Shown in pieces: positions 2,744 through 19,654 of a stretch of DNA of 21,907 bases; the stretch's first letter is position 1; every line of letters starts with the position of its first letter. The stretch lies in IMG/VR virus record IMGVR_UViG_2671180847_000012; one strand, written 5' to 3'. The notes below the pieces were generated by a model. The model ran no database searches and was not told the DNA's origin. It saw nothing but the letters and a program-made list of their open reading frames with translations. Source of the DNA: a virus (lineage: Duplodnaviria; Heunggongvirae; Uroviricota; Caudoviricetes). The position numbers were made by a program, and so were the translations under genes.

Positions 2744-3802
2744 TTGAGCATGAATTCATCTAGCGCATTTGCTACGCCTGTTGTTGCCAACAATAGTCAA
2801 CAAGTATTATCTGATTTGATTACTGCGCTTGAGCAGACCAATCTATATTCATTTATTTCTCAGATAGCAACTGTGTATGGATTTCCACCTGTTAAAGGTG
2901 GAATGGATGCGGTTTTGAAGGCAATCGAGGCATCTATACAGAATCCAACAGCTGCATTTCCTAATGCTACATTAAATTCACTTGAGAAAATGATCGATAG
3001 AATAATAATCTCTGGTAGTCACTATTATTCTATTGACGAAACACAAGACCCAAATTTCCAAAGTGTGATCCAACATGTTTTTAGTACAAGTGTAACTGAT
3101 TCAAGGTATGAAAATTCTTATCCAAGAAAGTTATATGATGGTAATTCACTTGGGAACAATATCAAAGGTCTTTATCTGACTAAATTAATTGATACTGGCG
3201 ATGGCTTTGCTTTTATTTTCTCATATGTTTATAGTGTTAAGATTAAGGGAAGTCGCGGTTTAGGACTATCGTATACCCCACAGCAACAATTTATAACAGT
3301 ATTTGTTCCCCATAATAAAAATAGGATCGAGTATCGTCTTCCAAAAAATTTAGGGAAACGGGAGACAGCAAAAGCGCTTGCATCGGTGCGTAATAAATTT
3401 TTTGATATGCTCATCAGTACTAATAATACTATTCATTTCAAACAATTGAATTTTTATAATGTGATCAATAGCATTATTACTGATAGATCGTTCGGGAAAG
3501 CAGTTCAGATAATTTATGTTGGTTCTAATACAGGTTGTGATGCTAATGTCATTGGCCGCAAAGATCCGACATATGAAGCTCGAGATGTCGAGATTACTAA
3601 TAAGAAAAGAAATGATATTTATACACCACGTGCTGTAGCCGTAAGATTTTACAGAAATAATGGTGACTTTACAGAATTGGGTCTAGATCCAAATAAGAAA
3701 TCTTGGTTGGATGATAATTTTTGTGGCGAATTTTATGTTGATTTTCCTGAAGATACAATCTCATTAAATGGTTTAATTGAAAATGTCATCTCACGAAAAT
3801 GA
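2744..3802 (+). CDS. Hypothetical protein, cargo gene A of an att-proximal three-gene operon (no family recognised)
   Basis: 352-aa ORF, markedly AT-rich by eye compared with the flanking host and phage genes; its stop overlaps the start of the next ORF. No motif I can assign. Confidence 0.6.
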   Translation: MSMNSSSAFATPVVANNSQQVLSDLITALEQTNLYSFISQIATVYGFPPVKGGMDAVLKAIEASIQNPTAAFPNATLNSLEKMIDRIIISGSHYYSIDETQDPNFQSVIQHVFSTSVTDSRYENSYPRKLYDGNSLGNNIKGLYLTKLIDTGDGFAFIFSYVYSVKIKGSRGLGLSYTPQQQFITVFVPHNKNRIEYRLPKNLGKRETAKALASVRNKFFDMLISTNNTIHFKQLNFYNVINSIITDRSFGKAVQIIYVGSNTGCDANVIGRKDPTYEARDVEITNKKRNDIYTPRAVAVRFYRNNGDFTELGLDPNKKSWLDDNFCGEFYVDFPEDTISLNGLIENVISRK

Positions 3803-4214
3803 TAGAATCAAGGTCATAATGATGCTTTTGTCTGAACAAAGGATATTATTGGATGAAATGAAAGATATCTTTCCTGAAGAAGATATCTTTCTATTCAATA
3901 ATGTTTTGGATTTCATTCAAAATAATTATGATAAAAATTATTACCCGATTAATGTATTAAGGCAAGCGGCAGGCTGTGAATCGGACTCGGATTTGCTAAA
4001 GTTAGTCCGTTATTTTTGTGGTGCACATTCTAAATTATTTAATATAACTTATTGCTATTATGATTTTGATGGTGAAGAAATCCCTATTTCAGCAGAATGC
4101 TACTATAATGCTCTGATTTGTGATATTTCTCCGATCAGTTTATTGTCTGGGCGCGAAATAGATGATTTCGATGTTAATAACATTTCTTTTTACTGTATAT
4201 TAAATGTCAAATAA
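3783..4214 (+). CDS. Hypothetical small acidic, Cys-rich protein, cargo gene B
   Basis: ORF overlaps the end of gene A and its stop overlaps the start of gene C. Start is ambiguous (TTG 3777, ATG 3783, or ATG 3819); no strong Shine-Dalgarno. Confidence 0.5.
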   Translation: MSSHENDRIKVIMMLLSEQRILLDEMKDIFPEEDIFLFNNVLDFIQNNYDKNYYPINVLRQAAGCESDSDLLKLVRYFCGAHSKLFNITYCYYDFDGEEIPISAECYYNALICDISPISLLSGREIDDFDVNNISFYCILNVK

Positions 4215-5001
4215 TTTTCTTCAAAATATAACACCTGCCGAATTAGCCGCGCTGGTAAACTTGAAGCCATTCGATGAGGATGTGTTTGTACAAAGTCTAT
4301 ATGCCGATATAAATAATGCAATTAAGCATATTGAGAAGACTGCGGATAAATATTATTCAGATGATGAAGATAAGATCACTAATTTACTGGTTTTATTTCT
4401 CAAAGGTGTTGGGTACAACGCATCTGAACAAACAAAATCTAATGGTTCCGTCGATATTACAGTTCAGGATCGTGATCAGAGCTTTACTTGGCTCGCTGAA
4501 GCAAAAAGAGGGAATTCGTATAATGGTGTCTTTGAAGGCATGTTACAGTTAGTAACAAGATATATTTCTGATGAGAAACATGCAGGTTTCTTTATTTACC
4601 ATCAGAAACTTGATTCATTAAGTTACTTTAAAAATTGGTTCAGCTACCTTAGCTCTGGTGATTTTGAAAAATATAAGGCTATTTCTGATAGGCTTGATGA
4701 GTGCCGATATCATTTTAAAAAGAGCCCCATAGCAAATGCGTTTACCGGTGATGAATGTTATTTTGACTACAATATAGTTTCAAAAAAGGGAAAAGAAGTA
4801 AAGGTTAGAAATTTTATTTTAAGTTTGCACTATAACCCTGCGGATAAAAGTGGACGAGAGAATAAATCCTTGAAGGTCGGACAAGCGAAAATTTATGTCA
4901 ATGAAGTGTGTGACAAGTGGTTTCGTGAGCAAGAACCTCCTGAAGATATTGATAAATTCATGAATTCACTACAATTAGTATTCCCTGAACTATTTGAATA
5001 A
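4204..5001 (+). CDS. Hypothetical protein, cargo gene C; possible PD-(D/E)xK-type nuclease
   Basis: 265-aa ORF overlapping the stop of gene B. Contains SVDITV followed about 15 residues later by WLAEAK, a spacing resembling the D...ExK nuclease core; this is a motif-level inference only. Confidence 0.55.
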   Translation: MSNNFLQNITPAELAALVNLKPFDEDVFVQSLYADINNAIKHIEKTADKYYSDDEDKITNLLVLFLKGVGYNASEQTKSNGSVDITVQDRDQSFTWLAEAKRGNSYNGVFEGMLQLVTRYISDEKHAGFFIYHQKLDSLSYFKNWFSYLSSGDFEKYKAISDRLDECRYHFKKSPIANAFTGDECYFDYNIVSKKGKEVKVRNFILSLHYNPADKSGRENKSLKVGQAKIYVNEVCDKWFREQEPPEDIDKFMNSLQLVFPELFE

Positions 5002-5024: not shown

Positions 5025-6011
5025 CTAATTTTTATTTAATGTTGGTGTGATGCGTATTTTTCTATCATAAACCATGACTTGTGATTCAGTTTTGTGCCCA
5101 CTAAATAGCTGCTTTTCTTTTGATGATCCTTCATAGTCAGAAATTCCTTTAGCTTTCAGATCATGAAATGTACAATCCAGAGGTCTTCCAAGATAGTTGG
5201 CTGCCGCTGTTCTTGCTTTTCGCCATGCCTCATTAAACCCCTTGTAAGAGTAACGCTCTCCATACATGGTTTTAATTACTGACCCTGTTTCCCCCCACGA
5301 TCTGCAAATATCAACTGCCGCGCGCAGGCGATCAGTCCACGCCTTGATCTGCTTAACTCCCGTCTTGCCCTGCTGAATAAAAATTCCTTTATCCATTATC
5401 TGCGGCCAGTCCATTTTCAAGACATCGGATACCCTCGCTGCACATAAATAAGCTATTTCCATTGCGGCTTTAACTGGCTCACTGGCGTGTTCATAAATCG
5501 CCATGTATTCCTCATCTGTGATGTAGCGATCACGCTTTGGTTTAGGGAATTTATCTACTCCAACGCAAGGATTTCCAGGAACATATCCTCGTTGGTATCC
5601 CCAACGAAATACCCGAGACATTGAACTGTGCTCATGGTTAGCTTGGACACGACTTTTCTTTCCTCTGGCATCCATATACCGCCTTACATGTTCTGGTCTA
5701 ATAGTCTTTGCTTCCGCTTCGCCAAAAACAGCAAGGAGATATTTTTCGTGGGCTAGATAATCCTTTTGAGTTCGTGGTGCCAAATCTGCATAATCGGCAC
5801 TATTGAGAAATTTCTTCCAAAGCTGGGCAAAAGTTATTCGTCTTTTTCTCCCCTCTACAATTTTTTCAAAAGCAACCCAGACATCTGCTTTTGTTGCATT
5901 GGCTGATGCAATTTTTTCTGTTGTTCCCCCTGGTTTCCAGTAGTAGCCAGAAGGGCGGAAATATACCCCCTTCGGCATCCATTCATTACCAGGTGCTCGT
6001 TTTCGACCCAT
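5025..6011 (-). CDS. Lambda-family tyrosine integrase (prophage Int)
   Basis: 328-aa ORF with segments resembling lambda Int (QQGKTGVKQIKAW, LFSGHKTESQVMVY with the C-terminal tyrosine); followed 4 nt upstream by a small xis-like gene. Confidence 0.9.
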   Translation of the reverse strand: MGRKRAPGNEWMPKGVYFRPSGYYWKPGGTTEKIASANATKADVWVAFEKIVEGRKRRITFAQLWKKFLNSADYADLAPRTQKDYLAHEKYLLAVFGEAEAKTIRPEHVRRYMDARGKKSRVQANHEHSSMSRVFRWGYQRGYVPGNPCVGVDKFPKPKRDRYITDEEYMAIYEHASEPVKAAMEIAYLCAARVSDVLKMDWPQIMDKGIFIQQGKTGVKQIKAWTDRLRAAVDICRSWGETGSVIKTMYGERYSYKGFNEAWRKARTAAANYLGRPLDCTFHDLKAKGISDYEGSSKEKQLFSGHKTESQVMVYDRKIRITPTLNKN

Positions 6012-14783: not shown

Positions 14784-15593
14784 ATGAATAATCTGATGGT
14801 CATTGATGGTATTGAAGTTCGTCGTGATGCTTATGGGCGTTACAGCCTGAACGATCTGCATCGCGCAGCAGTAGCATCTGGTGCAAATGCCAGAACCAAG
14901 GAGCCAGGAAAGTTTCTTTCCAGCCAACAAACTGTTGAGCTTGTTCATGAATTGACCAACACCCAGAATTTGGGTGTTGACCCGGTGAGTGTGATTCATG
15001 GGGGAAATGAACGGGGAACGTATGTCTGCAAGGAACTGGTGTATGCCTATGCAATGTGGATCAGCCCGTCATTCCATCTGAAGGTGATCCGTACTTTCGA
15101 TATGGTAACCAGCGCACCGGAAAAATTATCCGGGCAGGCTGCTGACAAGATGCAGGCTGGTGTGATTCTGCTGGACTTTATGCGCAGGGAGTTAAACCTG
15201 TCTAACTCATCAGTGCTTGGTGCCTGTCAGAAACTCCAGGAGGCTGTTGGCTTACCGAATCTGGCACCGCGCTATGCCATTGATGCTCCTGCTGACGCGC
15301 CTGATGGCTCAAGTCGCCCCACGCTGTCGCTGAGTGCACTGCTGAAACAGTATGGTATCCGCCTTACGGCTAATCAGGCATATCACCAGATGGTGAAGCT
15401 GGGGATCGTCGAGCAGCGCGAACGATACAGCCGTACCGCGATTAACAACATCAAAAAATTCTGGTCGCTGACAGCGAAAGGCTGCATGTTCGGCAAGAAC
15501 ATCACCAGTCCTGCAAATCCGCGCGAGACGCAGCCGCATTTCTTCGAATCCCGATTCCCTGAGCTGTTAAAGCTGCTCGATACCGTTCATTGA
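14784..15593 (+). CDS. KilA-N domain protein (antirepressor-like)
   Basis: N-terminal segment typical of KilA-N domain proteins; GAGGAG Shine-Dalgarno upstream. Confidence 0.65.
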   Translation: MNNLMVIDGIEVRRDAYGRYSLNDLHRAAVASGANARTKEPGKFLSSQQTVELVHELTNTQNLGVDPVSVIHGGNERGTYVCKELVYAYAMWISPSFHLKVIRTFDMVTSAPEKLSGQAADKMQAGVILLDFMRRELNLSNSSVLGACQKLQEAVGLPNLAPRYAIDAPADAPDGSSRPTLSLSALLKQYGIRLTANQAYHQMVKLGIVEQRERYSRTAINNIKKFWSLTAKGCMFGKNITSPANPRETQPHFFESRFPELLKLLDTVH

Positions 15594-15594
15594 G

Positions 15595-16590
15595 GTGACT
15601 GTGAGAGCACTACTGACCCCTGAAATTGCCCCGCGTATGGGGATCGTATTGTTCAGACCTGGTTCAGAGCTGATGCCCCTGTTTATGCAGGGGCGTGTCC
15701 TGCTGGAGCCTGAGCCGGAACGTTATTCATCTTTTGCCAGTGGTGCCGTTCCGGCGGCATCACAACCGCTGGCGGATGATCCTGTCGTTCGGGCCGTGTT
15801 CCGCAATGAGGCAGTGATCCGTCGTGCTGGTGGCGTGGAATGTCTTGAAAGCTGGTTACTTCGTGAAAAAGGCTGCCAGTGGCCTCATTCCGACTGGCAC
15901 AGCGAGAACATGACAACAATGCGACACGCGCCGGGCGCAATCCGTCTGTGCTGGCACTGCGATAACCAGCTGCGCGATCAGTTCACGGAACGGCTGGAAT
16001 CAATGGCAACGGATAACTGTGCCCGCTGGGTGTTGTCTGTTGTGCGTCGGGATCTCGGTTTTGATGACAGTCACGTTGTGACAATGCCGGAACTGTGCTG
16101 GTGGCTGATTCGTAATGACCTGGCGGATGCCTTACCGGAAAGTGCAGCCCGTAAGGCACTGAGATTACCGAAGCCTGTTGTGCCGTCTGTCACCCGGGAA
16201 AGTGACCTTGTGCCTTCGGTTCCTGCCACCAGCATCATCCAGGATAAGGCGAAAAAGGTGCTGGCGCTGAAAGTGGATCCGGAGTCGCCGGAGTCTTTTA
16301 TGTTACGCCCAAAACGTCGCCGCTGGGTTAATGAAAAGTACACGCGCTGGGTTAAGACACAGCCGTGTGCATGTTGTGGAAAGCCTGCTGATGATCCCCA
16401 CCACCTGATAGGCCACGGTCAGGGGGGAATGGGTACAAAAGCGCATGACCTCTTTGTGTTGCCTTTGTGCAGAAAGCATCACGACGAGCTGCATGCGGAT
16501 ACCGTGGCATTTGAAGAGAAGTATGGCTCCCAGCTGGAGCTGATATTTCGTTTTATCGATCGTGCGCTGGCAATAGGCGTACTGGCGTAA
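15595..16590 (+). CDS. DUF968-type phage protein with C-terminal HNH-like motif
   Basis: C-terminal CxxC...HHLIGHGQGGMGTKAHD...CRKHHDELH pattern; sits in the rusA-to-Q interval typical of lambdoid nin regions. GTG start, position uncertain. Confidence 0.7.
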   Translation: MTVRALLTPEIAPRMGIVLFRPGSELMPLFMQGRVLLEPEPERYSSFASGAVPAASQPLADDPVVRAVFRNEAVIRRAGGVECLESWLLREKGCQWPHSDWHSENMTTMRHAPGAIRLCWHCDNQLRDQFTERLESMATDNCARWVLSVVRRDLGFDDSHVVTMPELCWWLIRNDLADALPESAARKALRLPKPVVPSVTRESDLVPSVPATSIIQDKAKKVLALKVDPESPESFMLRPKRRRWVNEKYTRWVKTQPCACCGKPADDPHHLIGHGQGGMGTKAHDLFVLPLCRKHHDELHADTVAFEEKYGSQLELIFRFIDRALAIGVLA

Positions 16591-16603: not shown

Positions 16604-17356
16604 ATGAACCTTGAAGCCTTACCGAAATATTACTCCCCAAAATCTCCAAAATTGAGCGATGACGCACCGGCGACAGGCTCGGGTGGTTTAACAATTACGG
16701 ATGTAATGGCTGCGCAGGGGATGGTGCAGTCGAAAGCACCGCTTGGGTTTGCCTTATTCCTGGCAAAAGTTGGTGTTCAGGATCCTCAGTTTGCGATTGA
16801 AGGTCTGCTCAATTACGCGATGGCACTGGATAACCCGACATTGAACAAATTGAGTGAAGAAACCCGGTTACAGATCATCCCTTACCTTGTGAATTTTGCC
16901 TTTGCTGATTATTCCAGGTCTGCGGCAAGTAAGGCTCGCTGTGAGCATTGTGCTGGTACTGGATTTCATAATGTATTGCGCGAAGTGGTGAAACACTCCA
17001 GAAGCGGGGAATCTGTTATCAAGGAAGAGTGGGTGAAGGAACTGTGTCAGCATTGTCATGGTAAGGGAGAAGTCAGCACAGCGTGCAGAGGGTGTAAGGG
17101 TAAAGGTATTGTCCTGGATGAAAAAAGAACCCGGCTTCATGGCACGCCTGTTTATAAGGTTTGTGGGCGTTGCAATGGAAACCGGTTTAGCCGTTTACCA
17201 ACCACACTGGCGCGGCTTCATGTCCAGAAGCTGGTACCAGACCTGACGGATTATCAGTGGTACAAAGGATATGCAGATGTCATTGATAAACTGGTTACAA
17301 AGTGCTGGCAGGAAGAAGCATATGCAGAGATACAATTGAGAAAGGTGACAAGATAA
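16604..17356 (+). CDS. Late-gene antiterminator Q (Qin-type, about 250 aa)
   Basis: Cys-rich zinc-finger-like motifs (CEHCAGTG, CQHCHGKG, CRGCKGKG, CGRCNG) and a position immediately upstream of a promoter plus short-transcript terminator pair. Confidence 0.8.
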   Translation: MNLEALPKYYSPKSPKLSDDAPATGSGGLTITDVMAAQGMVQSKAPLGFALFLAKVGVQDPQFAIEGLLNYAMALDNPTLNKLSEETRLQIIPYLVNFAFADYSRSAASKARCEHCAGTGFHNVLREVVKHSRSGESVIKEEWVKELCQHCHGKGEVSTACRGCKGKGIVLDEKRTRLHGTPVYKVCGRCNGNRFSRLPTTLARLHVQKLVPDLTDYQWYKGYADVIDKLVTKCWQEEAYAEIQLRKVTR

Positions 17357-17387: not shown

Positions 17388-17416
17388 TTGCGTTTTTCAA
17401 AAAATATGGATAAGAT
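17388..17416 (+). promoter_or_regulatory. Candidate late promoter PR'
   Basis: TTGCGT, 17-nt spacer, TAAGAT, about 50 nt upstream of a strong intrinsic terminator; classic PR'-tR' layout. Confidence 0.5.
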
Positions 17417-17463
17417 TTTCACAACGATGGGCTTTGTATGTCTACCGTTGATAAGATTTAAGA

Positions 17464-17487
17464 ACCCGCCACTGAGCGGGTTTTTTT
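17464..17487 (+). terminator. tR' intrinsic terminator
   Basis: ACCCGC-CACTGA-GCGGGT hairpin followed by TTTTTTT. Confidence 0.75.
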
Positions 17488-17609
17488 GTACCTGTAAACT
17501 TGGTGCAATACAGTAAACACGCTGGTGGTCGTGAATACTGACTTTTTATCTTGCTGGCTTTTTAGACAAGAGTTATTGGTATGTCATGTTAACCAGAAGG
17601 GAAAAAGAC

Positions 17610-17813
17610 ATGCTAAAACAGCAAGATATGACAGAAACCGCCGCCGCAGTCCTTCATTTCTTACCTGCTGACAAGTGGGTAACGCCACGCATGATGACGA
17701 GAACTACCGGAGTAAGCGAAGCCCGGTGCCAGTTAATACTGACTCAGTTAGTTCTGGCGGGGCTGGCGAAGGATAACGGCGGGTACGGGAATAAATTCAG
17801 ACGCTGCCAGTAA
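17610..17813 (+). CDS. Small putative winged-helix/HTH DNA-binding protein
   Basis: 67 aa from the ATG at 17610, which is preceded by AAGGGA; HTH-like stretch TRTTGVSEARCQLILTQLVLAGL. Lies directly upstream of a methyltransferase gene. Confidence 0.45.
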   Translation: MLKQQDMTETAAAVLHFLPADKWVTPRMMTRTTGVSEARCQLILTQLVLAGLAKDNGGYGNKFRRCQ

Positions 17814-17963
17814 TGGCGGTTTCCTGCTGTGAAAATGGGCGGCTGGTGGGTGTTGGTAGCACCTGCCAGCCATTCGCTCATGCTTACTGGTCACAAGCGA
17901 ACCACGGCCCACTGCTTTAGCGCAAAAGCAGAGTGAGCCTACCAGAGTTACGCTTACTGATCC

Positions 17964-19016
17964 ATGAAAAATACTGTAAAAATAAACAGTGTTGATTTAA
18001 TCAACGCTGATTGCCTGCATTTTATTCAGTCCCTGCCTGATGATTCCATTGACCTGATTGTTACCGATCCGCCGTACTTCAAGGTGAAACCCAACGGCTG
18101 GGACAATCAGTGGAAAGGGGACGAAGATTACCTTAAGTGGCTGGACCACTGTCTGGCCCAGTTCTGGCGGGTGTTAAAACCTGCCGGAAGCCTTTACCTG
18201 TTCTGTGGGCATCGCCTGGCATCTGATATTGAGATCATGATGCGTGAACGTTTCAACGTGCTTAACCATATCATCTGGGCGAAGCCGTCCGGACGTTGGA
18301 ATGGGTGTAATAAAGAAAGTCTGCGCGCATATTTTCCTGCCACAGAGCGCGTTCTGTTTGCTGAACATTACCAGGGGCCATATCGCGGCAAAAGTGACGG
18401 CTATGCAGCAAAAGAAAGGGAACTCAAACAGCACATAATGGCACCGCTGATATCGTATTTCAGGGATGCTCGTGCCGAACTGGGTATAACGGCAAAACAA
18501 ATTGCCGAAGCCACAGGTAAGAAAAATATGGTTTCCCACTGGTTTGGTGCCAGTCAGTGGCAGTTGCCGAATGAGGCTGACTATCGGAAGTTACAGGCAC
18601 TGTTTTCCCGTATAGCGGCAGAGAAGTTTCAGGAACAACAACTGGAACAACCACACCACCAGCTGGTGGCATCTTATGATTCACTGAATCGTAAATATTC
18701 TGAATTGCTGGATGAGTTTAAATCTCTCCGGCGCTATTTCTCCGTATCAGTCTCCGTGCCTTATACCGATGTCTGGATGCATAAACCCGTTCAGTTCTAC
18801 CCGGGGAAACATCCGTGTGAGAAACCGGCGGATATGCTCAGGCAAATAATCAATGCCAGTAGTCGACCAGGTGATCTGGTTGCTGATTTTTTTATGGGAT
18901 CCGGTTCCACAATAAAAGCAGCAATGGCGCTGGGGCGTCGGGCCTTAGGTGTTGAGCTTGAGTCAGAGCGGTTTAATCAGACAGTGAAAGAGATAAACGA
19001 GCTGGTGGGGAAATAA
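17964..19016 (+). CDS. Orphan DNA methyltransferase (beta-class N6-adenine or N4-cytosine)
   Basis: DPPY motif near the N-terminus (LIVTDPPYF) and an AdoMet-binding FxGxG-type motif near the C-terminus ([10 protein letters not shown]); no adjacent restriction endonuclease gene is evident. Confidence 0.85.
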
Positions 19017-19020
19017 TCTG

Positions 19021-19046
19021 GTGGCCACGTCAGGTGGCCTTTTTAT
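19021..19046 (+). terminator. Intrinsic terminator after the methyltransferase gene
   Basis: GGCCAC-GTCAG-GTGGCC hairpin followed by TTTTTATTT. Confidence 0.55.
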
Positions 19047-19083
19047 TTCCATTACACAGCACCCGCATCTGCGAGGTGGGGTT

Positions 19084-19299
19084 ATGAAATCCATGGATAA
19101 GTTAACAACGGGTGTCGCCTATGGCACCTCAGCAGGTAGTGCCGGGTACTGGTTTTTACAGTTGCTCGATAAAGTCACGCCCTCACAGTGGGCGGCAATA
19201 GGTGTGCTGGGTAGTCTGGTATTTGGCTTGCTGACGTATCTGACAAACCTTTATTTCAAGATTAAAGAAGACAAGCGTAAGGCTGCACGGGGAGAGTAA
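19084..19299 (+). CDS. Class II holin, phage-21 S-like pinholin
   Basis: MKSM dual-start motif and two hydrophobic segments ([17 protein letters not shown] and [18 protein letters not shown]), resembling S21 as recalled; GAGGTGGGG upstream. Confidence 0.8.
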
Positions 19300-19303
19300 T
19301 TCA

Positions 19304-19654
19304 ATGACTCAAAACTATGAACTGATTGTGAAAGGGATCCGCAATTTTGAGAATAAAGTTACGGTAACTTTAGCGTTACGGGACAAAAAACGTTTTGACG
19401 GTGAAATTTTTGACCTGGACATCTCGCTGGACCGTGTTGAAGGTGCCGCGCTGGAGGTTTATGAGGCAGCAGCCAGAAGGAGCATCAGACAGGTCTTCCT
19501 GGATGTTGCTGCCGGGTTATGTGAAGGGGATGAGCAGTCGCCGGAAAAGCGCCCCGTAATTTTAGATGCGCAGAATGTTTGGATAACCTACAAAGGAAAG
19601 CTACCAGGAAGAATTACTGGTTCTCTGAAGACTCCTCCGGAATCACAACCTTAA
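19304..19654 (+). CDS. Hypothetical protein inserted between holin and endolysin
   Basis: 116-aa ORF with GGAGAG Shine-Dalgarno; no recognisable motif. Confidence 0.55.
   Translation: MTQNYELIVKGIRNFENKVTVTLALRDKKRFDGEIFDLDISLDRVEGAALEVYEAAARRSIRQVFLDVAAGLCEGDEQSPEKRPVILDAQNVWITYKGKLPGRITGSLKTPPESQP

Follow-up and report, generated by a model that had tools for sequence, protein, structure and literature searches.

We analysed a stretch of 21,907 nucleotides from a virus of the class Caudoviricetes (IMG/VR record IMGVR_UViG_2671180847_000012). This whole stretch, referred to below as the window, is an E. coli-type lambdoid prophage. Between its antiterminator gene Q and its lysis genes lies a module whose genes are all on the plus strand and which consists of an open reading frame (ORF) of 67 amino acids (aa) at 17610-17813, a structured leader RNA at 17831-17966 and a 350-aa beta-class N6-adenine methyltransferase at 17964-19016. 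A previous sequence-only reading of the window had placed the two ORFs at these positions, and both were found there; it had treated the 150-nt gap between them as a plain spacer, and no other element of the locus proved as conserved as this gap. The two genes form an already known and common M.EcoGII-type module. What is new is an undescribed conserved structured leader that is fused to the methylase start, together with a dedicated winged-helix companion.

The identity of the locus was profiled against loci from other genera (loci are cited by number, such as L059). The results showed that positions 17827-17976 were 87-97% identical at the nucleotide level, one variable loop region excepted, compared with about 60-85% for the methylase coding sequence and about 50% amino acid identity for the small protein; the spacer, which keeps a length of 149-151 nt and was itself 90-97% identical, was the best-conserved stretch of the locus across genera. 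In a scan of 185,579 species genomes, in which two loci cut at the contig end were left unjudged, the leader stood directly 5' of the ATG in almost all methylases with an identity of 70% or more, the exceptions being L038 and L048, which lack it. A second covariance model, R2, detected no leader before methylases of 44-57% identity (Proteus, Shewanella, Vibrio ichthyoenteri and others).

Five helices make up the leader. P1 (17836-40/17907-11) closes a junction that holds the long hairpin P2 (17841-53/17858-71) and the hairpin P3 (17873-78/17896-901), and the hairpins P4 (17913-18/17925-30) and P5 (17932-38/17952-58) follow 3' of the junction. The minimum free energy (MFE) fold of the window leader had a z of -3.7. 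Covariation was assessed in a model-based alignment of 44 distinct sequences, with partners slid by 1-3 columns and shuffles as controls. The results showed that 93% of helix cells formed standard pairs, compared with 30-42% when the partners were slid, and that 28 of the 41 pairs carried double-sided changes, whereas shuffling gave a mean of 8.2 +/- 1.9 (none of 500 shuffles reached the observed number) and sliding gave 4-9. All five helices were kept with different sequence in L059, L067 and L071. P1 covaried across a gap of about 70 nt, from UGGGC/GCCCA to UGAGC/GCUCA, GUGGGC/GCCCAC or CGGGG/CCCCG, the last in Acinetobacter L071, where P2 reads GACGUUAGAUUG/CAAUCUAACGCC. L059 has GCGGGA/UCCCGC in P2 and GCGAU/AUCGC in P4. 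When distant members, L059 among them, were folded as single sequences, P1 to P4 were recovered unaided. P2, P3 and P5 are non-palindromic, contain G-U pairs and covary. A coding explanation of the conservation was rejected, because the loops of P2 and P3 carry 1-nt indels in many copies and because the changes compensate one another. Two further pairings were tried and dropped: a pseudoknot of the 5' UGUGA with UCACA was not supported by the variants L030 and L058, and a pairing of GGUCAC with GUGAGCC was not supported either.

Rfam 15 holds no family for the leader, and only the two tRNAs of the window reached gathering scores. At E values up to 5, nothing matched within 17814-17963 or at the leaders of L052, L059, L067 and L071, and partial matches to leader-like or terminator-like families ended at the terminator site 17463-17489. 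A full-text literature search with four leader DNA segments, two of them also as RNA, gave no match; no description of the leader was found in the literature on structured RNAs, prophage methylases and EcoGII induction, and neither a comparative paper on pR' nor a paper on helper-embedded satellites mentions a methylase. Judged by these comparisons, the supposed spacer is an undescribed structured leader RNA of about 130 nt and five helices that fills the whole intergenic gap.

The leader is also complementary to the start of the methylase. The methylase AUG has no Shine-Dalgarno sequence, the bases upstream of it being GCUUACUGAUCC. The interior of P3 holds three conserved segments, CAUG (17879-82), GGUCA (17889-93) and AAGC (17895-98), the first two separated by a stretch that is variable in sequence and length. 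Their antiparallel complements are GCUU (17952-55), UGAUC (17958-62) and CAUG (17963-66), the last of which holds the start codon, so that the complementarity to the P3 interior spans 15 nt and ends at the AUG. The 13 leader-start pairs were 95% pairable in the 44 sequences, compared with 17-39% in slid controls. Duplex energies against shuffles gave a mean z of -2.2, and of -5.3 in L067, where the GUCAUAAG/CUUAUGAC duplex covers the AUG; L059 showed two compensatory changes, from GGUCA/UGAUC to GGUAU/AUAGC. The MFE folds of L052, L067 and L071 contained the sequestering helix, which in L071 also covers a Shine-Dalgarno sequence, and the window sequence had two folds 3.6 kcal/mol apart (-58.7 vs -55.1). 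The pairing could form as a loop-tail pseudoknot with P3 and P5 standing or, together with AAGC/GCUU, as an alternative helix that replaces P3 and P5. This anatomy suggests a translation-inhibition structure, possibly a two-state switch, and the leader probably gates translation of the toxic methylase.

The methylase matched PF01555 (N6_N4_Mtase) with an E value of 2e-42 over residues 29-341. As the sequence-only reading had reported, DPPY lies near the N-terminus (residue 35) and FxGxG near the C-terminus (FFMGSGS, residue 309); this is the beta-class motif order (IV, target-recognition domain, I), and both the catalytic and the S-adenosylmethionine (SAM) motifs are intact, which removes the reservation that the enzyme might lack catalytic residues. 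PADLOC labelled it MTase_II (type II-like). By its motifs and its surroundings, the methylase is an intact, orphan beta-class enzyme. We compared it with M.EcoGII and the reconstructed ancestor Anc291, using the sequences in Supplementary Table S1 of Ochiai et al. 2024 (PMC11551740). It was identical to M.EcoGII at 281/349 positions (~81%) and to Anc291 at 310/348 positions (~89%), percentages that are approximate because the reference sequences were machine-read from a PDF supplement. M.EcoGII is a non-sequence-specific adenine methylase active on DNA and RNA (PMC5778455), and Anc291 is non-site-specific on DNA and RNA, an activity that it and deeper ancestors retain (PMC11551740). Because the window enzyme is bracketed phylogenetically by M.EcoGII and Anc291, it is most likely non-specific for adenine context.

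M.EcoGII and M.EcoGI, from prophages of E. coli O104:H4 C227-11, are of the same family and, like the window methylase, are prophage-borne enzymes of 349-350 aa with the beta-class order; the window methylase is a different allele from M.EcoGII. M.EcoGII is not expressed in normal growth or in the lysogen, and its constitutive expression sickens cells (Murray et al. 2018, PMC5778455). By this likeness, the window enzyme would be expected to be silent in a lysogen. The M.EcoGII paper (PMC5778455) does not mention antitermination, lysis or the upstream context, and the literature searched contained no reference to Q/tR', the winged-helix ORF or the leader.

The small ORF starts at ATG 17610, because MLKQQDMTETA is an invariant N-terminus in 20 homologues (alignment A1); a 75-aa ORF from 17586 is an upstream extension of it, and the added 17586-17609 is not conserved among the homologues. 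The small ORF is a conserved gene: this N-terminus and the recognition helix 3 (CQLILTQ) are both invariant in the 20 homologues, while helices 1 and 2 vary freely and recombine. An AlphaFold2 model built from the 20-homologue alignment had a predicted local distance difference test score (pLDDT) of 87 and a predicted template modelling score (pTM) of 0.75, with the topology helix-strand-helix-helix-strand-strand (helices 4-17, 26-33 and 37-49; strands 53-55 and 63-65). The best PDB matches in Foldseek were winged-helix domains of TrmBL2, IclR regulators, Zalpha and the domain of SelB that binds the selenocysteine insertion sequence (SECIS), with template modelling (TM) scores up to 0.82; as the E values were only 4e-3 to 3e-2, this support is at the level of the fold. 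By this model, the 67-aa protein is a winged helix, in agreement with the fold that had been guessed for it.

With normal thresholds, the small protein matched nothing in Pfam (E <=0.01), NCBIfam or PADLOC; when E values up to 1 were admitted, it matched only MarR_2 (14.3 bits), DnaD_N (13.0) and TrmB (12.6), all below the Pfam cutoffs. The sole family match was phrog_331, which has no functional annotation, and some relatives of about 50% identity are labelled 'TrmB family transcriptional regulator' in NCBI records. The family is small, with 95 clusters at 50% identity among 1.84 billion proteins, almost all of 50-110 aa. Most winged-helix proteins are DNA binders, and Zalpha domains contact Z-DNA through N/Y in the helix and W in the wing. 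A Zalpha-type function was rejected for the small protein, since these contact residues were not apparent by eye in its sequence.

The module is bracketed by terminators. Q (16604-17356, Pfam PF03589) is followed by TTGCGT-N17-TAAGAT at 17388-17416, a candidate late promoter pR' that was read by eye between the Q stop (17356) and tR' and that a consensus promoter scan did not report, and by a tR'-type intrinsic terminator (AACCCGC CACTGA GCGGGTT, then a T-run) at 17463-17489. A second, terminator-like hairpin, P0 (17803-17830; stem-loop 17803-17820, then a U/C-rich tract), separates the small gene from the leader. The stop codon TAA of the small ORF (17811-17813) sits in the P0 loop, and the P0 stem covaries between loci (alignment A5). 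P0 is a strong intrinsic terminator in L019, L022, L026, L035 and L059, and in L026 its position is that of tR' itself. As the sequence-only reading had it, the module is closed by its own hairpin and T-run terminator (GGCCACGTCAGGTGGCC TTTTTATTTC; 19023-19048), which was found by a terminator scan. Phages Ayreon and SfV have terminators annotated at the homologous places of both tR' and the closing terminator.

Between tR' and the small ORF, a conserved block at 17550-17609 consists of CTTGCTG, about 13 nt and ACMAGAGTTATYKGTRTGTCAYG. In alignment A8, covering nine loci from several genera, its consensus was CTTGCTG..AGAGTTAT..GT.TGTCA.G, followed by an AAGGG Shine-Dalgarno-like tract. The block may serve as a translation start region or a promoter, or it may be a different RNA element. 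It starts directly 3' of tR' in loci where the small gene abuts tR'.

The module has been sequenced and annotated many times, and the gene pair itself is therefore ordinary. The 2-kb module region was 99.2% identical in phage mEp460 and 99.4% in Ayreon, occurs also in phages cdtI and SfV (orf47/orf48) and in Stx1a- and Stx2c-converting phages, and was carried over at least 80% of its length by 1111 of 5426 complete E. coli genomes (about a fifth). The annotations of the pair read 'hypothetical protein' and 'DNA methylase'. A scan of viral contigs with the methylase found near-identical copies only and no extra diversity. Eight or more genera share the arrangement, with different Q genes and lysis cassettes, which argues against a chance pair of ORFs; the Q genes belong to three unrelated families (PF03589, PF06323 and PF06530), the lysis cassettes are of several kinds, and the placement is always in phage late operons. 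One Stx2c phage has the order Q, moron ORF, winged-helix ORF, gap/leader, methylase, stx2A, stx2B. The place downstream of pR'/tR' had been called a cargo slot, and this phage, with the same module between Q and stx2A/B, fits that description. The methylase of the Stx2c phage LC727889 (L183 3338-7005) is a mosaic, with a window-like N-terminal half and an M.EcoGII-like C-terminal half.

Linkage was also examined from the side of the small protein, in loci from Kosakonia, Klebsiella oxytoca, plant and soil metagenomes, Salmonella and E. coli and in one locus with a 64-aa variant. In every sampled locus with a contig long enough, the winged-helix gene was followed by the leader and methylase region. 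The spacing from its stop to the methylase start was 149-151 nt, and 139 nt in the 64-aa-variant locus (L185-187). A divergent homologue (hhalign probability 92%) lies upstream in Pseudocitrobacter L059, whose methylase is 56% identical, and a homologue is present in Proteus L060; an 85-aa upstream ORF of Vibrio L067 was rejected as a family member, its match not being significant (hhalign E 0.11). Salmonella L011 (4204-5513) keeps the winged-helix ORF and an intact leader, and no methylase gene was called in the homologous 1.3 kb, which may be a pseudogene.

The surroundings of the small gene differ among relatives. The stretch from tR' to the winged-helix ORF is a variable insertion site (L001 2687-3263; L183 3338-3763; L092 1636-3087): Ayreon, mEp460 and the Stx2c phage carry a 141-aa lipoprotein-like ORF there, and in many E. 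coli prophages the site holds the gene of a 483-aa AAA_15/AAA_21 ATPase on the opposite strand, possibly a defence gene. In L021 and L024 (2558-2797), a 79-aa Cys-rich ORF with three CxxC motifs occupies the usual place of the winged-helix ORF upstream of the leader, and it had no significant family match. In Rosenbergiella L053 (207-2678), an 823-aa ORF, by eye resembling a type IIG methylase/endonuclease fusion, adjoins the leader and methylase upstream. L069 (1563-3006) has the leader and a truncated methylase right after an isocitrate dehydrogenase-like (icd) ORF and has the appearance of a remnant prophage that sits at the icd attachment site.

Some relatives carry Com-like genes before the methylase. 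In Acinetobacter L071, the leader is followed by a 62-aa Zn-ribbon ORF (2826-3014) and then by the methylase; this ORF matched PF10122 (Zn_ribbon_Com) with 48 bits and is 43% identical to Mu Com. Weaker Com-like ORFs precede the methylase in Vibrio L067 (2835-2945, after the leader) and Vibrio L062 (2859-3026, no leader), with 17.8 and 18.3 bits, below the 22.9-bit cutoff. The window has no Zn-ribbon Com gene before the methylase and carries the winged-helix ORF instead, and R2 with filters off found no leader in the Mu com-mom region (best 5.7 bits).

Mu Com activates the translation of mom, a toxic late gene for anti-restriction adenine modification, by freeing its start (Hattman 1999 and Wulczyn et al. 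1989, cited in PMC3299994), and Mu-like prophages of Haemophilus and Neisseria carry unrelated non-specific adenine methylases in the mom position behind com (Drozdz et al. 2012). The window module and Mu com-mom share a toxic, late, broad anti-restriction adenine modification and a small nucleic-acid-binding gene immediately upstream. For the window, it is a prediction that the start region of the modification gene would be sequestered in RNA structure, and a Com homologue occurs in distant relatives of the module. Mom is an unrelated enzyme with a different modification, Com is a Zn-ribbon and not a winged helix, the Mu operon is C-dependent whereas that of the window is lambdoid and Q-dependent, and the leader has no detectable counterpart in Mu. 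The Com target hairpin and translation-inhibition stem of Mu are much smaller than the window leader. Hia5, Hin1523 and Nma1821 are also non-specific m6A methylases in a late position behind a com-like gene, and are presumed to be tightly repressed protectors of phage DNA (Drozdz et al. 2012, PMC3299994). Their motif order is Dam-like, with DPPY at about residue 194 after FxGxG, and the arrangement is not homologous to the window enzyme. As relatives of the module carry Com-like genes and Mu gates the translation of mom, the lambdoid module would be a variant of the Mu logic with different parts, and this likeness points to translational gating of the com-mom kind.

Non-coding RNAs are known from the same pR' late-region slot, namely AgvB, AsxR, the Pas small RNAs (sRNAs) and StxS (PMC4104026; bioRxiv 10.64898/2026.05.13.724894). 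The anti-sRNAs AgvB and AsxR are 51-60-nt convergent RNAs between moron coding sequences and a downstream hypothetical ORF (PMC4104026; bioRxiv 10.64898/2026.05.13.724894). The window element is instead a five-helix leader of 130 nt fused to a methylase start codon, and an identity with AgvB, AsxR or a Pas sRNA was rejected on size and position, the two papers containing no methyltransferase. StxS, the short transcript from pR' to tR', was rejected on that account.

We consider it likely that these parts form a late module of three components: the winged-helix protein, the leader RNA, and a probably non-specific M.EcoGII-family methylase whose start is gated by the leader. In a lysogen, the module would be silent behind tR' and the second hairpin P0, as its anatomy suggests and in keeping with the silence of M.EcoGII. 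Because terminators bracket the methylase on both sides, only antiterminated polymerase should reach it, and on induction Q-modified RNA polymerase from the putative pR' would read through. The methylase would then hypermethylate replicating phage DNA before packaging, as the biochemistry of M.EcoGII and the precedent of Mu mom and Hia5 suggest, and the hypermethylated progeny would resist adenine-methylation-sensitive restriction in the next host; no endonuclease partner would be involved. Since the enzyme is toxic, extra translational gating would be expected. The complementarity and conservation of the leader suggest that it would sequester the initiation region, as a loop-tail pseudoknot or an alternative helix, and the co-transcribed winged-helix protein would be a candidate, though not obligatory, opener. 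Of the two interpretations that the sequence-only reading had left side by side, the regulated late anti-restriction methylase is thus the better one, given about 81% identity to an enzyme that is silent in the lysogen and toxic if constitutive, and the controller or restriction-modification (R-M) remnant falls away.

Several points weigh against this reading. The alignment used for covariation was fitted to a covariance model and hence leans towards structure, and when RNAalifold was run on 40 sequences aligned simply with MAFFT, the structure was a different and poor one; the model-based alignment was used instead, because the plain one had misaligned loops and included L038, which is without the element. 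The pairing between leader and start shows almost no double-sided covariation, with only compatible single-sided changes (G-U/G-C/A-U, at two pairs) because both sides are nearly invariant, and the natural variants L005, L015, L020, L026 and L043 weaken it. The folded leader may be the OFF or the ON state. The non-specificity of the window enzyme is extrapolated from 81-89% identity, and the M.EcoGII sequence behind the lower figure is a machine-read one. P4 of the window (17913-17930) is a DNA palindrome, and in distant relatives it is perfect including the loop (GCGATGCGCATCGC, GCTCTGCAGAGC and CTGTGATCACAG; L059 2950-2968, L067 2793-2806 and L071 2766-2779), which fits a DNA operator equally well; because an RNA hairpin needs no palindromic loop, P4 could be a dyad operator or a kissing-loop dimer. 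Finally, 15 of the 45 genome loci with methylase and leader have no detectable winged-helix gene: L026 has the order Q, tR', leader, methylase, and other such loci have unrelated ORFs in its place.

It is possible, if on balance unlikely, that the winged-helix protein is a Com-like partner that is translated first, binds the leader RNA or P4, opens the start and so switches on the methylase. Consistent with this, its gene precedes the leader and methylase region in every adequately long sampled locus, divergent homologues stand before the strongly diverged leader of L059 and in Proteus L060, and the recognition helix does not change, unlike helices 1 and 2. The family is very small and confined to phages, its structural neighbours include Zalpha and the RNA-hairpin-binding winged helix of SelB, and the position and size of the gene mirror com in Mu com-mom. 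However, a third of the 45 loci keep leader and methylase unchanged without the gene, and the leaders of the window and SfV are identical although their winged-helix proteins are only about 52% identical. In L071, and possibly in L067, a Com-like protein stands downstream of the leader instead, and winged-helix proteins mostly bind DNA. We regard as doubtful, too, the broader idea that the leader is a new class of cis-regulatory RNA for the non-specific adenine methyltransferases of temperate phages, bistable and opened by a winged-helix RNA-binding activator; if true, it would make the winged-helix protein a fold-unrelated functional analogue of Mu Com.

The leader might instead be a riboswitch-like sensor of a small molecule such as SAM or S-adenosylhomocysteine (SAH), or of the methylase itself, that feeds back on translation. 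Its multi-helix junction, near-invariant unpaired nucleotides and covarying stems would suit a sensor, as would its expression-platform-like overlap with the start codon, the two near-isoenergetic folds in the window and the strict association with a single family of genes that encode a SAM-consuming, RNA-binding enzyme (PMC5778455). We think this improbable, as neither a SAM/SAH riboswitch nor a different Rfam family matched at E values of up to 5, and as the leader precedes a com-like gene and not the methylase in L071 and L067.

Another reading would place the function of the conserved spacer at the DNA level: P4 could be the operator of a dimeric regulator, or the spacer could hold an internal promoter or serve as a linker for recombination between modules. 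The perfect palindrome of P4 in distant relatives speaks for it, and a conserved TGTGRAAAT resembles an extended -10 element. Conserved linkers are known at lambdoid module junctions and also count in its favour. The covariation of P1 across about 70 nt, and the non-palindromic, G-U-containing, covarying P2, P3 and P5, make this very improbable; the extended -10 element is a weak one, the key -11 position being G in many copies, and a recombination linker would not keep helices while its sequence changes.

The controller-protein arrangement that the sequence-only reading had proposed resembles the module in that a small gene of the DNA-binding type precedes a methylase gene, here a type II-like one (PADLOC MTase_II). 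C proteins are of the Xre helix-turn-helix (HTH) type, bind to C-boxes located ahead of their gene and regulate an endonuclease, and the module has none of these: the small protein does not match PF01381, no inverted repeat of at least 8 nt that could serve as a C-box occurs in 17480-17625, and no restriction-endonuclease family was found by Pfam, NCBIfam and PADLOC among the window proteins scanned. A degraded or split R-M system with a controller protein is scarcely credible, because a terminator-like hairpin and a 130-nt structured RNA part the small gene from the methylase, because 15 of the 45 loci do without a detectable winged-helix gene, and because an endonuclease gene is absent from the window and from the flanks of the module in the tabulated neighbourhoods of relatives, the closest characterised enzyme (M.EcoGII) is non-specific and the module always sits in phage late operons. 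Methylation of every adenine would in any case leave no meaningful cognate endonuclease.

The neighbouring genes are those of a lambdoid late region. Upstream of Q lie a KilA-N gene (14784-15593) and a DUF968/HNH gene (15595-16590), both on the plus strand. Downstream, the order is a P21-type holin ORF (19021-19299, plus strand; its Pfam holin match begins at residue 26), a 116-aa DUF1327 ORF (19304-19654) between the holin and endolysin genes, lysozyme and Rz, and the earlier claim that no endonuclease gene adjoins the methylase is correct for these neighbours and for Q.

At the left end, positions 1-2609 contain a second integrase gene (1-1275) and a tRNA (1459-1531), both on the minus strand, an mtfA-like M90 peptidase gene (1632-2468) and a long-arm tRNA (2523-2609). 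The second integrase, the two tRNAs and the M90 peptidase gene suggest that the window opens with host DNA from a tRNA integration hotspot. Between the tRNA at 2523-2609 and the prophage integrase gene (5025-6011), positions 2744-5001 carry three ORFs on the plus strand (352, 145 and 265 aa). They had no Pfam, NCBIfam or PADLOC match, the sole match being phrog_9664, which has no functional annotation, and they may be cargo at the prophage attachment end.

M.EcoGII is a textbook non-specific methylase and a commercial reagent widely used for methylation-based chromatin and RNA mapping. The literature searched contains no account of its deployment by phages or of the way in which they protect lysogens from it. 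About one in five complete E. coli genomes carries the module, which in Stx2c phages stands directly upstream of the Shiga toxin genes, between Q and stx. The leader, a candidate RNA family absent from Rfam, is a concrete and testable handle on this control, and together with its winged-helix companion it makes the control of a toxic methylase accessible to experiment. The comparison with Mu suggests that Mu-like and lambdoid lineages have converged on the translational gating of toxic, broad-spectrum anti-restriction enzymes.

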